From Escherichia coli (GTDB lineage Bacteria; Pseudomonadota; Gammaproteobacteria; Enterobacterales; Enterobacteriaceae): a stretch of 64,000 bases of DNA. Numbering within the stretch: the first letter of the stretch is position 1; each line of letters starts with the position of its first letter. Both the position numbers and the translations under genes were made by a program. The notes below the pieces were generated by a model. It had not been told where the DNA came from. It was given only the letters and a program-made list of their open reading frames with translations, and did no database searches. The stretch lies in NCBI RefSeq assembly GCF_003018255.1, contig NZ_CP027440.1, one strand, 5' to 3'. Below, in pieces: positions 25,571 through 29,725 of this stretch.

Positions 25571-25655
25571 CCTCACCCTGAAAGATGAGCAATGAATTTC
25601 TATTGCGCTCGATCGGTTCCCTCTCCCTTAGGGAGAGGGTTAGGGTGAGGGTAAA
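25571..25655. repeat. Intergenic palindromic repeat element (copy 1), contains gggagagggttagggtgaggg
   Basis: Nested inverted repeats cctcaccct...ccctctccc tta gggagaggg ttagggtgaggg; 21-nt core shared with 29704-29724. Confidence 0.45.
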
Positions 25656-25663
25656 ACGCAAAC

Positions 25664-27175
25664 TTACTCTTCGCCGTTAAACCCAGCGCGGTTTAACAGG
25701 AACTGTGCCAGCAACGCTACCGGACGACCGGTTGCGCCTTTTGCTTTACCAGAACGCCAGGCGGTTCCTGCAATATCCAGGTGAGCCCAGTTATACTTAC
25801 GGGTAAAGCGTGACAGGAAGCAACCTGCGGTAATCGCCCCACCAGGACGACCGCCAATGTTCGCCATATCGGCAAAATTGGACTCCAGTTGTTCCTGATA
25901 CTCGTCACCCAGCGGTAAGCGCCATGCGCGGTCACCGGATTGTTCAGACGCGGCAATCAGTTCATGGGCCAGCGGATTATGGTTCGCCATCAGACCAGTA
26001 ATATGATGACCCAGCGCGATCACGCAGGCACCGGTCAGCGTCGCCACGTCAATCACTGCTTCCGGCTCAAAACGTTCAACGTAAGTTAACACGTCGCACA
26101 GTACCAGGCGGCCTTCGGCATCGGTGTTCAGCACTTCAACGGTTTGACCGGACATGGTGGTTAACACATCGCCCGGACGATAGGCACGCCCGCCAGGCAT
26201 GTTTTCACAGCCTGCCAGCACGCCAATAACGTTAATCGGCAGTTGCAGCTCCGCGACCATACGCATCACGCCGTAAACCGCCGCCGCGCCGCACATATCG
26301 TACTTCATCTCATCCATGCCTTCTGAAGGCTTGATGGAGATACCGCCGGAGTCGAAGGTTAAACCTTTACCCACCAGCACGATTGGGCGTGCATCTTCCG
26401 ACGCGTTGCCTCTGTACTCAATCACCGACATCAGCGATTCGTTTTGTGAACCCTGACCGACCGCCAGATAAGAGTGCATTCCCAGCTCTTTCATCTGCTG
26501 TTCGCCGATAACGCGGGTGATGACATTCTTGCTGTAGCTGTCAGCCAGCTGGCGCGCCTGAGAGGCGAGATAAGCGGCGTTACAGATATTCGGCGGCATA
26601 TTACCGAGATCTTTCGCTGCTTTTATCCCGGCGGCAATCGCCAGACCGTGCTGGATCGCGCGCTCACCGCTGGTCAGTTCACGGCGGGTCGGCACGTTGA
26701 ACACCATCTTACGCAGCGGGCGACGCGGTTCGCTCTTATTCGTTTTCAACTGATCGAAACTGTAGAGCGTCTCTTTTGCTGTCTCGACAGCCTGACGCAC
26801 TTTCCAGTAGTTGTTACGGCCTTTAACGTGCAGTTCAGTCAGAAAGCAGACCGCTTCCATCGAGCCAGTATCATTCAGCGTATTAATGGTTTTCTGAATA
26901 ACCTGCTTGTACTGACGCTCATCCAGCTCACGTTCTTTGCCGCAACCAATAAGGAGAATTCGCTCGGAAAGTACATTCGGAACATGGTGCAGCAACAGTG
27001 TCTGCCCCGGTTTTCCTTCCAGTTCGCCCCGACGTAGCAGGGCGCTGATGTACCCATCGCTGATTTTATCGAGCTGTTCTGCAATCGGAGAAAGGCGACG
27101 TGGTTCGAAGACGCCCACGACGATGCAGGCACTCCGCTGTTTCTCCGGGCTACCGCTTTTTACACTAAACTCCAT
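25664..27175 (-). CDS. pepA: Leucyl aminopeptidase (PepA)
   Basis: 503 aa, M17 peptidase motif NTDAEGRL. Confidence 0.97.
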
Positions 27176-27441
27176 GCACTACGCTCCTGAATCTTAAAGA
27201 CAACGGCGGTGGCTACAGATAGAATTGCAAGCTTTCGTAACTCATGTCCGCTGTTGCGATGACTTCGTGTTAATCTTAACGTTATTACGGCATTGGCACG
27301 TCAGAACAAAATCTGAGAGGTGAATCCGTTGAGTATAATTATCTTAGCGACGATTTCGACGACTCAAGAGAATAAATGACGTTTAAGCCATGAAACAAGC
27401 TAAAATCCTGCAAAAGACGAGTTTTTACGGGCGTATTTAAA

Positions 27442-28542
27442 GTGATAATCATAAGATATCTGGTGCGGGAGACGCTCAAAAGCCAGCTGGCGATACTCTT
27501 CATCTTGCTTTTGATCTTCTTCTGTCAAAAGTTAGTGAGGATCCTCGGCGCAGCGGTTGACGGCGATATTCCGGCGAATCTGGTGCTCTCCCTTCTCGGG
27601 TTGGGCGTGCCGGAAATGGCGCAGCTTATCCTGCCATTAAGCCTGTTCCTCGGGCTGCTGATGACGCTGGGCAAACTGTATACCGAAAGTGAAATTACGG
27701 TAATGCATGCCTGCGGCCTGAGCAAAGCGGTTCTGGTGAAAGCGGCAATGATCCTTGCGGTATTCACGGCAATCGTCGCGGCGGTTAACGTGATGTGGGC
27801 GGGACCGTGGTCATCGCGTCATCAGGATGAAGTGTTAGCAGAAGCGAAAGCGAACCCTGGCATGGCGGCGCTGGCGCAAGGGCAATTCCAGCAAGCGACT
27901 AATGGCAGCTCGGTGCTGTTCATCGAAAGCGTTGACGGCAGCGATTTCAAAGATGTGTTCCTCGCGCAAATTCGACCAAAAGGTAATGCACGTCCTTCTG
28001 TGGTGGTGGCCGATTCCGGACATTTAACCCAGCTGCGCGACGGCTCCCAGGTCGTCACTCTCAACCAGGGAACGCGCTTCGAAGGCACTGCACTGTTACG
28101 TGATTTCCGCATTACGGACTTCCAGGATTATCAGGCGATCATTGGTCACCAGGCGGTGGCGCTCGACCCGAACGATACCGACCAGATGGACATGCGCACA
28201 TTGTGGAACACTGACACCGATCGTGCCCGTGCAGAACTGAACTGGCGTATCACGTTGGTATTCACCGTGTTTATGATGGCACTTATGGTCGTACCGCTGA
28301 GCGTGGTTAACCCGCGTCAGGGACGCGTACTGTCGATGCTGCCAGCCATGCTGCTGTATCTACTTTTCTTCCTGATCCAGACCTCCCTGAAATCGAACGG
28401 CGGTAAAGGTAAGCTGGACCCGACGCTGTGGATGTGGACCGTTAACCTGATTTATCTGGCTTTGGCGATTGTTCTCAACCTTTGGGACACCGTGCCGGTC
28501 CGCCGCCTGCGCGCCAGTTTTTCGCGTAAAGGAGCGGTGTGA
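27442..28542 (+). CDS. lptF: LPS export ABC permease LptF
   Basis: 366 aa, multi-TM; overlaps lptG start by 4 nt. Confidence 0.95.
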   Translation: MIIIRYLVRETLKSQLAILFILLLIFFCQKLVRILGAAVDGDIPANLVLSLLGLGVPEMAQLILPLSLFLGLLMTLGKLYTESEITVMHACGLSKAVLVKAAMILAVFTAIVAAVNVMWAGPWSSRHQDEVLAEAKANPGMAALAQGQFQQATNGSSVLFIESVDGSDFKDVFLAQIRPKGNARPSVVVADSGHLTQLRDGSQVVTLNQGTRFEGTALLRDFRITDFQDYQAIIGHQAVALDPNDTDQMDMRTLWNTDTDRARAELNWRITLVFTVFMMALMVVPLSVVNPRQGRVLSMLPAMLLYLLFFLIQTSLKSNGGKGKLDPTLWMWTVNLIYLALAIVLNLWDTVPVRRLRASFSRKGAV

Positions 28543-29624
28543 TGCAACCTTTTGGCGTACTTGACCGCTATATCGGTAAAACTATTTTCACCACCATCAT
28601 GATGACGCTGTTCATGCTGGTGTCGCTGTCGGGCATTATCAAGTTTGTCGATCAGCTGAAAAAAGCCGGGCAGGGGAGTTACGACGCGTTAGGCGCAGGA
28701 ATGTATACCTTGCTGAGCGTGCCGAAAGATGTGCAAATCTTCTTCCCGATGGCGGCTCTGCTTGGGGCGTTGCTTGGTCTTGGGATGCTGGCGCAGCGCA
28801 GCGAACTGGTGGTGATGCAGGCTTCTGGTTTTACCCGTATGCAGGTAGCGCTGTCGGTGATGAAAACCGCCATTCCACTGGTCTTGCTGACGATGGCGAT
28901 TGGCGAATGGGTCGCGCCGCAGGGCGAGCAGATGGCGCGTAACTACCGTGCGCAGGCGATGTACGGCGGCTCGTTGCTCTCTACCCAGCAAGGCTTATGG
29001 GCGAAAGATGGCAACAACTTCGTCTACATTGAGCGGGTTAAAGGTGACGAGGAGTTAGGTGGCATCAGTATTTATGCCTTTAACGAGAATCGTCGTCTGC
29101 AATCCGTACGTTATGCCGCTACCGCGAAGTTTGACCCGGAACATAAAGTCTGGCGTCTGTCGCAGGTTGATGAATCTGACCTGACCAATCCGAAACAGAT
29201 TACCGGTTCGCAGACGGTGAGCGGCACCTGGAAAACCAACCTCACGCCAGACAAACTGGGCGTGGTGGCGCTGGACCCGGATGCACTCTCCATCAGTGGT
29301 TTGCACAACTACGTGAAGTATCTGAAGTCGAGCGGTCAGGATGCCGGACGTTATCAGCTCAACATGTGGAGCAAAATCTTCCAGCCGCTATCCGTGGCGG
29401 TGATGATGCTGATGGCGCTGTCGTTCATCTTTGGCCCACTGCGTAGCGTACCGATGGGCGTGCGTGTGGTCACCGGTATCAGCTTCGGTTTTGTCTTCTA
29501 CGTACTGGACCAGATCTTCGGCCCGCTGACGTTGGTTTATGGCATCCCGCCGATCATCGGCGCACTGTTGCCAAGCGCCAGCTTCTTCTTAATCAGCCTG
29601 TGGCTGTTAATGAGAAAATCGTAA
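28539..29624 (+). CDS. lptG: LPS export ABC permease LptG
   Basis: 361 aa, multi-TM, operon with lptF. Confidence 0.95.
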   Translation: MMQPFGVLDRYIGKTIFTTIMMTLFMLVSLSGIIKFVDQLKKAGQGSYDALGAGMYTLLSVPKDVQIFFPMAALLGALLGLGMLAQRSELVVMQASGFTRMQVALSVMKTAIPLVLLTMAIGEWVAPQGEQMARNYRAQAMYGGSLLSTQQGLWAKDGNNFVYIERVKGDEELGGISIYAFNENRRLQSVRYAATAKFDPEHKVWRLSQVDESDLTNPKQITGSQTVSGTWKTNLTPDKLGVVALDPDALSISGLHNYVKYLKSSGQDAGRYQLNMWSKIFQPLSVAVMMLMALSFIFGPLRSVPMGVRVVTGISFGFVFYVLDQIFGPLTLVYGIPPIIGALLPSASFFLISLWLLMRKS

Positions 29625-29630
29625 TCTAAC

Positions 29631-29660
29631 AAGGGAGCGAAAGCTCCCTTTATTATTGTT
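29631..29660 (+). terminator. Rho-independent terminator after lptG
   Basis: aagggagc gaaa gctccctt followed by tattattgtt. Confidence 0.6.
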
Positions 29661-29688
29661 GACAAAGTCAAATACGAGTTCGAACGGT

Positions 29689-29725
29689 CCCCTCGCCCCT
29701 TTGGGGAGAGGGTTAGGGTGAGGGG
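29689..29725. repeat. Intergenic palindromic repeat element (copy 2)
   Basis: cccctcgcccctttggggagagggttagggtgagggg; shares 21-nt core with copy at 25631-25651. Confidence 0.45.

Follow-up and report, generated by a model that had tools for sequence, protein, structure and literature searches.

BoxC, one of the small repeats dispersed in the Escherichia coli genome, is reportedly owed to Bachellier et al. in the 1990s; the potential intrastrand triplex (PIT) elements are said to go back to work of Hoyne and Maher in 2000-2002, and a reading of them as a host-serving DNA switch to Maher as well. What can be discerned about two copies of a palindromic intergenic element in a stretch of 64,000 nucleotides of E. 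coli DNA (contig NZ_CP027440.1; the whole stretch is called the window here), one lying between pepA and holC and the other between the convergent genes lptG and yjgR? By their block pattern and flanks, both are members of BoxC, an already known family that also goes by the names PIT, TMECO and HPGQ. The flagged sites rediscover a catalogued E. coli repeat and, because it is catalogued, are not reported here as new. As to what the copies are, we consider it probable, with some reservation, that they are BoxC copies that serve nothing, being selfish or neutral DNA derived from the ends of a cassette carrying a YcjD-type DUF559 gene. This association between BoxC and DUF559 appears to be new, and no published link between the two was found in the literature searched.

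Holder et al. (2015; PMC4666352) treated TMECO, the BoxC repeat of the 1990s and the PIT elements of Maher as one and the same, tabulated 23 TMECO copies in K-12 and described them by the pattern 5'-CCCTCNCCC N3-6 GGGNGAGGG N3 GGGNGAGGG-3'. Kaplan et al. (2016; PMC5100583) reported the same 21-mer as in the window at 13 K-12 sites, as HPGQ group HPG1, and saw in it a hairpin/G-quadruplex 'switch'; Petrillo et al. (2008) counted BoxC, with 50-56 bp, among the known E. coli families. The two papers that contain the sequence (PMC4666352 and PMC5100583, both in Nucleic Acids Research) were found by a full-text search for the literal 21-mer. The published architecture is GC-rich and comprises, in about 50 bp, one C-rich 9-mer and two G-rich 9-mers, both complementary to the C-rich one; the first two blocks fold into a hairpin when single-stranded, and circular dichroism (CD) and nuclear magnetic resonance (NMR) studies of the same sequence placed the third block either in the groove of the hairpin, as an intrastrand triplex, or in a G-quadruplex.

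The window copies conform to this architecture. Each site carries the three-block unit CCCTCNCCC, loop, GGGAGAGGG, TTA, GGGTGAGGG. The 21-mer GGGAGAGGGTTAGGGTGAGGG, which the earlier note had described as shared by the two copies, is present on the + strand at exactly two sites, 25631-25651 and 29704-29724; no further site was found in the window with up to 3 mismatches allowed, and 100 dinucleotide-preserving shuffles gave 0 matches (chance expectation 0). In each copy a C-rich block, complementary to the G-rich block that comes first, stands ahead of it, CCCTCTCCC at 25619 and CCCTCGCCC at 29690. Copy 1 spans about 25605-25652 on the + strand, with the 5' flank GCGCTCGATCGGT followed by the core CCCTCTCCC-TTA-GGGAGAGGG-TTA-GGGTGAGGG-T at 25619-25652 (C-block 25619-25627, G-block 1 25631-25639, G-block 2 25643-25651), and is of type A with a perfect stem. 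Copy 2 spans about 29676-29725, also on the + strand, with the 5' flank GAGTTCGAACGGT and the core CCCCTCGCCCC-TTT-GGGGAGAGGG-TTA-GGGTGAGGGG, and is of type 'A mm', with a G.A mismatch in the middle of the stem. The pattern of Holder et al. is fitted by both, in copy 1 as CCCTCTCCC-TTA-GGGAGAGGG-TTA-GGGTGAGGG and in copy 2 as CCCTCGCCC-CTTTG-GGGAGAGGG-TTA-GGGTGAGGG.

The likeness to the published family extends to single entries and beyond the core. The 36-mer of copy 2 (29690-29725) is identical to K-12 TMECO nos. 7, 11 and 15, and copy 1 differs from no. 2 by an edit distance of 1, an indel of one loop base; its 3-nt first loop, TTA, exactly matches no K-12 entry. Alignment of both window copies with 11 K-12 type-A copies reveals a common 13-nt 5' flank, g[ta]GC.C..A.CGGT, and it is because this flank is conserved in the aligned copies that we draw the canonical units at about 25605-25652 and 29676-29725. 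In both copies the unit thus exceeds the 36-nt core; the classical BoxC is given as about 50-56 bp long. Window copies and catalogued members share the three-block pattern, the 21-mer, the TTA second loop that defines type A and the 5' flank, and the window copies are likewise intergenic, dispersed and strain-variable. The differences are in nothing essential: both window loci are unoccupied in K-12, hence absent from the 23-member list.

The inverted repeats are real, because in each copy the C-rich block is complementary to the first G-rich block. In copy 1, CCCTCTCCCT/AGGGAGAGGG (25619-25628 / 25630-25639) pair perfectly over 10 nt; in copy 2, CCCCTCGCCC/GGGTGAGGGG (29689-29698 / 29716-29725) reach 90% pairing. 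The capacity to form hairpins, also proposed earlier, is borne out by prediction: as single-stranded DNA, copy 1 reaches -9.3 kcal/mol (z = -3.1) and copy 2 -8.6 kcal/mol (z = -2.4), rivalled by a predicted three-tetrad G-quadruplex of the 21-mer (-12.6 kcal/mol; ViennaRNA with G-quadruplex terms on), and as RNA the hairpin is predicted to be favoured, at -16 to -19 kcal/mol for either strand. The nesting of the repeats and the extent of copy 1, given in the earlier note as 25571-25655, hold only in part. An element is there and its inner pair is genuine; its left edge was drawn too far out, to include the outer inverted repeat CCTCACCCT/AGGGTGAGG (25571-25579 / 25642-25650; 9 nt, perfect). 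The left arm of that repeat, the 9-mer CCTCACCCT at 25571-25579 on the + strand, is complementary to G-block 2 at a distance of 62 nt and lies outside the canonical unit and the family consensus; we rejected it as a part of BoxC, since it falls beyond the flank common to the 13 aligned copies. It may be the decayed remnant of a partner copy: CCTCACCCTGAAAGA, at this 9-mer, resembles CCCTCTCCCTGAAAGA from the 3' end of K-12 ycjD in 14 of 15 positions, a weak match (E = 0.014 in a tiny search space).

The suggestion that the two sites belong to a family of small dispersed repeats other than REP (repetitive extragenic palindrome) and BIME (bacterial interspersed mosaic element), with Box C among the catalogued families to be compared, proved right, as the 21-mer and the 36-mer of copy 2 are in the published K-12 catalogue. 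A 47-nt query finds a median of 19 and a maximum of 35 places per genome, and does so in 5425 of 5426 complete E. coli genomes; with so many further copies genome-wide, a motif confined to two loci by chance is refuted. The units at 1861-1955 and 11820-11910 are classical REP and, as the earlier note held, unrelated. Other identities were tried and rejected. Neither copy has the GCC(G/T)GATGCG(A/G)CG-type core or the GTAG end of REP/BIME, whose imperfect palindrome measures about 35 bp; the ERIC/IRU elements (enterobacterial repetitive intergenic consensus, intergenic repeat units), imperfect palindromes of about 127 bp, are set apart by length, the copies sharing only about 50 bp, no alignment to the consensus of ERIC having been made; and an Rfam scan of 24500-30800 gave only sub-threshold chance matches on the copies (whalefall-1, 16.3 bits against a threshold of 37; Antizyme_FSE, 19.3 bits against 40).

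Where do BoxC elements come from? Members of the family form the inverted ends of genes for putative YcjD-type nucleases in many lineages. In a rumen metagenome-assembled genome (MAG; locus L031, 6962-7459), two inverted BoxC units enclose an open reading frame (ORF) of 126 amino acids which encodes a DUF559 protein (PF04480, E = 1.6e-38). K-12 ycjD itself (locus L126, 2185-2830) ends in ...SPSP*, encoded by a BoxC C-block, and is followed by a partial duplicate of its own 3' end and then, 168 bp on, by TMECO no. 9. This is not peculiar to K-12: among the 112 full-length sequences within the best 120 YcjD homologues, at least 73 carry a PSPRPSP-type C-terminal tail and most others have variants of it, the tailed genera including Enterobacter, Klebsiella, Kluyvera, Lelliottia, Phytobacter and Franconibacter. 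Translating the type-B 21-mer in reverse complement yields this tail. BoxC-like units also mark the gene ends in four homologues that were picked for lacking it, and in two of these the start codon lies inside the third block and the TAA stop in the second loop. A start codon with a Shine-Dalgarno sequence in the third block, considered as a universal feature, was rejected, being seen at only about 5-6 of 17 loci.

Gene and repeat also travel together. In E. coli the ycjD-type gene has sapF and fabI as its neighbours, in Enterobacter a hemN-like and a yggN-like gene, and in Klebsiella genes for an ABC-transporter binding protein and a Dyp peroxidase; in all three neighbourhoods a type-B BoxC extends across the stop codon and is followed by a type-A BoxC. 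The type-A unit beside the Enterobacter DUF559 gene is identical to window copy 2 in 39 of 39 positions. At seven loci (L031, L132, L214, L153, L135, L140 and L143), BoxC-type units form inverted repeats, perfect or nearly so and 38-79 bp long, on the two sides of the gene, so that the proposed parent does have this sequence at its inverted termini. YcjD-type genes bounded by BoxC-like repeats were noted in many taxa, the loci being L126 (K-12), L031, L132 (1467-1892), L127, L130, L133-L159 and L213-L216. In one genome, a lineage-specific loop, CAACG, is common to solo copies and to the repeats around its DUF559 gene.

As a forward test, which started from BoxC loci, gave only three loci (weighed below), a reverse test was made, starting from DUF559 genes sampled from viral contigs and counting flanking inverted repeats with a score of at least 15. 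Such repeats flank 14 of 15 close YcjD homologues; among 48 distant DUF559-like matches they flank none, and among 300 random controls 2. An independent systematic survey found DUF559 genes to be 14-fold enriched among inverted-repeat-flanked genes; around TMECO sites, Holder et al. (2015; PMC4666352) saw no genes related to mobility.

These observations are most likely explained if BoxC originated as the terminal inverted repeats of a tiny cassette encoding a YcjD-type DUF559 nuclease. As a hypothesis, this link stands at about an even chance and draws on several independent lines of sequence comparison. The putative nuclease would have a Vsr-like fold and be related to the EDxHD homing endonucleases: the YcjD profile matches PDB 3hrl (1e-39) and the homing endonuclease I-Bth0305I (3r3p; 7.5e-4), and in the literature DUF559, Vsr and the I-Bth0305I / EDxHD homing endonucleases fall into one clade. 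Solo BoxC units would then be solo ends, and the inward-facing pairs of a type-A and a type-B unit would be remnants that lost the gene, akin to miniature inverted-repeat transposable elements (MITEs); by our tally of the published table, 4 of 5 such pairs in K-12 share the end-to-end arrangement of the cassette. The scheme would also account for two features of some lineages, in which the GTG start of the cassette gene coincides with the T in GGGTGAGGG and its TAA stop with the TTA loop. Orphan units might owe their spread or their maintenance to the nuclease, which would act in trans on the extruded hairpin. That a minimal selfish cassette of about 420-600 bp, a YcjD-type DUF559 gene between inverted BoxC units, should in this way drive the copying or retention of orphans is a mechanism to which we give nearly, if not quite, an even chance. 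Vsr is a mismatch nuclease, and because of this we propose that the enzyme would recognise the hairpin in its extruded form, possibly through the G.A mismatch conserved at its centre. That mismatch (CCCTCGCCC opposite GGGAGAGGG, window 29690-29712) is the commonest form in E. coli and recurs, among the matches listed, in 32 of 122 copies from unrelated taxa (L002, L030-L033, L034-L065), a curious recurrence, given the relationship of the associated gene family to Vsr.

Several known systems provide precedents for parts of this scheme. REP/BIME with its REP-associated tyrosine transposase (RAYT, or TnpA-REP) is the closest: these, too, are small palindromic multi-copy intergenic repeats, found at both studied sites in other strains, and the arrangement proposed here for BoxC, with a nuclease gene between inverted repeat copies and many orphans elsewhere, is that of REP and RAYT. 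In sequence, however, they are unrelated: BoxC has neither the GTAG nor the GCCGGATG core of REP, and its third block repeats the second arm. The BoxC-associated gene encodes a PD-(D/E)xK Vsr-like nuclease, whereas RAYT is an HUH Y1 transposase, and RAYT mobilisation has been demonstrated in vitro, whereas a corresponding role of YcjD is a proposal made from sequence. MITEs and solo insertion sequence (IS) ends resemble BoxC in being short, non-coding, structured and multi-copy and in stemming from the ends of a gene-carrying parent, as is proposed here for BoxC; they differ in that most BoxC copies are single ends rather than pairs, that no target-site duplication is readable, and that the proposed parent of BoxC encodes no recognised transposase. 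The EDxHD homing endonucleases, finally, are a precedent for a selfish site-specific nuclease of this fold; YcjD-type genes, however, are free-standing rather than encoded in an intron or intein, and no cleavage site is known for them. If true, our scheme would give a cognate enzyme to a repeat listed for 30 years as of 'function unknown' and would constitute a second system of the REP-RAYT kind, with a different nuclease fold. If the link is causal, the origin and spread of BoxC and the genomic instability reported at BoxC loci become directly testable.

Within E. coli, the number of copies follows the presence of ycjD. We counted the places matching a BoxC-containing query in 60 E. coli records taken at even spacing: chromosomes with ycjD (n=37) have 15-28 places and those without (n=23) have 1-14, two disjoint ranges; B2-type strains have only 1-5 places.

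A number of points weigh against a cassette origin and have to be set against this evidence. The split in copy number tracks phylogroups, ycjD being known from phylogroups A, B1 and C (PMC12817139), and because it does, it amounts to few independent observations; O157 strains without ycjD still have about 12 copies. A DUF559 gene was searched for in the window and not found. In the forward test, tblastn of a DUF559 protein against the 120 BoxC loci listed from other species gave only 3 matches, 2 of them adjacent, which fits a rare master copy and is also weak support. The BoxC units of E. coli and Enterobacter ycjD lie on the 3' side only. Empty alleles were sought at both window sites and none was seen among the sampled genomes; because of this, neither an insertion junction nor a target duplication can be read. 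Published tests found no in vivo effect of BoxC elements, and both the action of the nuclease on BoxC and the movement of BoxC are putative. BoxC could also prefer to insert beside DUF559 genes, or both could be passengers of a third agent.

The family reaches far beyond E. coli. An exact scan for the 21-mer in one genome per species returned at least 120 loci (L002-L121), and among the matches listed are Pseudomonas (two genomes with about 30 copies apiece), Asticcacaulis, Bradyrhizobium, Mesorhizobium, Polaromonas, Methylobacillus and Contendobacter, several deltaproteobacterial and Thermodesulfobacteriota MAGs, a MAG of Verrucomicrobiales, a Gracilibacteria MAG of the candidate phyla radiation (CPR) with five copies on long AT-rich contigs, and one short contig binned as Methanomicrobiaceae, for which mis-binning is possible. 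These taxa extend past the proteobacterial range given in the 2015 paper (Holder; PMC4666352). Salmonella and Yersinia are reported to be without BoxC. The exactness of the 21-mer across taxa is due to the scan, which required an exact match; the presence of many copies in such distant genomes is not a product of this search. The 5' arm CCCCTC[T/G]CCC, for which no search was made, is also present in nearly every listed locus, and one Pseudomonas genome has an E. coli-type 5' flank, gcaccgaacggt. Of the 124 copies at the 120 loci listed from other taxa, 24 overlap an ORF, compared to 80% of random positions (crude ORFs). With similarly crude gene calls, their ratio of convergent to divergent settings is about that of random intergenic positions and a preference for 3' ends is absent, 14 of 36 tandem cases lying nearer the 3' end. 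Placement in the 3' untranslated region (UTR) was accordingly dropped as a general rule, K-12 hinting at it and the 120 listed loci not.

At both window sites, BoxC alternates with another repeat. The BoxC allele is present in 1404 of 5426 complete E. coli genomes at pepA-holC and in 1837 of 5426 at lptG-yjgR. K-12 is without BoxC at both sites, its pepA-holC gap holding a BIME (a REP pair) and its lptG-yjgR gap a REP (K-12 locus L001, 1811-1935 and about 5950-6050, corresponding to window 25561-25663 and 29665-29730); other pepA-holC alleles hold 1, 2 or 3 REP-pair units. The BoxC and BIME classes have no intergenic sequence in common. The window copies are insertion-type alleles, carried by roughly one in four to one in three E. 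coli genomes, in agreement with the strain variability of TMECO loci in general, which were described as hotspots of intergenic change (Holder et al., 2015; PMC4666352). That BoxC and REP/BIME are alternative alleles at the same two sites bears on the competition of repeats for 'safe' sites. In strain WB61 (L122, 120-380), a 122-bp tandem duplication comprises the 5' end of holC and the spacer adjoining the BoxC copy, a local rearrangement of the kind reported around BoxC elements.

The genes around the two copies are placed as the earlier note had them, ORF listing and K-12 annotation agreeing: valS, holC and pepA are on the - strand, lptF and lptG on the + strand and yjgR on the - strand. 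Copy 1 lies 11 nt past the pepA stop (25664-25666, -) and 88 nt ahead of the holC start (~25530, -), on the strand opposite to pepA. Copy 2 has a stop codon on either side: it lies 65 nt past that of lptG (29622-29624, +), beyond the lptG terminator, and 17 nt past that of yjgR (29743-29745, -). Do the copies then serve these genes? We think that they do nothing specific for pepA, holC, lptG or yjgR, and that most likely they represent non-autonomous DNA, either selfish or neutral, which is tolerated where no gene lies.

Of the alternatives, the one that survives best would have the copies act at the RNA level, as stem-loops in the 3' UTRs of pepA and yjgR that block 3'-to-5' exonucleases or insulate cistrons, which implies that the BoxC and BIME alleles are functionally interchangeable. 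Improbable as we consider it, it gains some support because other strains carry REP/BIME at exactly these sites and because the copies start just past the stops, at 11-17 nt. The strong hairpins predicted for the RNA of either strand fit it as well, as does our count from the published table for K-12, in which 15 of 16 type-A copies face at least one gene 3' end and 8 of 9 tandem cases lie nearer the 3' end. This placement, however, is not borne out by the 120 listed loci from other taxa, to the extent that crude gene calls can tell, and Holder et al. (PMC4666352) report more copies upstream of ORFs than downstream. The best-conserved part of the element, moreover, is its third block, which a hairpin does not require.

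Less likely again are inert relics, immobile copies that are inherited vertically or shuffled by homologous recombination and mark unstable intergenic spots, with adjacency to DUF559 reflecting an insertion preference or shared 'junk' sites rather than a relation of parent and offspring. The lptG-yjgR copy is seemingly also present in the B2 strain E2348/69, which has no ycjD, suggesting that old insertions persist without the gene; the copies within each locus are nearly identical across hundreds of genomes, and the published status of TMECO loci as hotspots of change fits equally. What immobile relics leave unexplained are the start and stop codons of the gene inside BoxC blocks in several lineages, the joint travel of gene and repeat to different chromosomal neighbourhoods, and the CAACG loop found in both the solo copies and the DUF559-flanking repeats of one genome.

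We give least credence to a host-serving switch, in which the G-rich strand toggles between duplex, hairpin/triplex and G-quadruplex and thereby regulates transcription initiation or termination of the neighbours, or replication (the reading of Kaplan et al., 2016; PMC5100583): a predicted G-quadruplex that rivals the hairpins, the triplex and G-quadruplex/hairpin forms seen in vitro by CD/NMR and the strong conservation across very distant taxa favour it, but the element is strain-variable and replaced by REP at both sites in most E. coli genomes, neither copy is terminator-like, in published analyses the copies were biased neither by gene class nor by distance or strand and had no effects in vivo on promoters, terminators or polymerases, and our tally of published tables gives no clear bias of K-12 orientation with respect to replichore or nearest transcript.

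The surroundings of the copies offer some further features. A terminator or promoter role of the copies found no support in a consensus scan, and a terminator scan of both strands reported neither BoxC copy. It did report, at 29631-29650, the intrinsic terminator of lptG, which extends over 29631-29657 on the + strand as AAGGGAGC-GAAA-GCTCCCTT followed by a T-rich tail, is not part of BoxC and is kept in the K-12 allele. When window 24800-30800 was compared to the 5426 complete E. coli genomes, the best full-length matches listed were 98.9% identical and only 5 records reached at least 99%, which indicates that the source strain is not closely represented there in the collection. Window 26423-26617 (+) matches the Rfam family Ysr276 (RF02850) with 185.8 bits against a threshold of 100 (E = 6e-57), a match placed within the pepA coding region, in antisense orientation.

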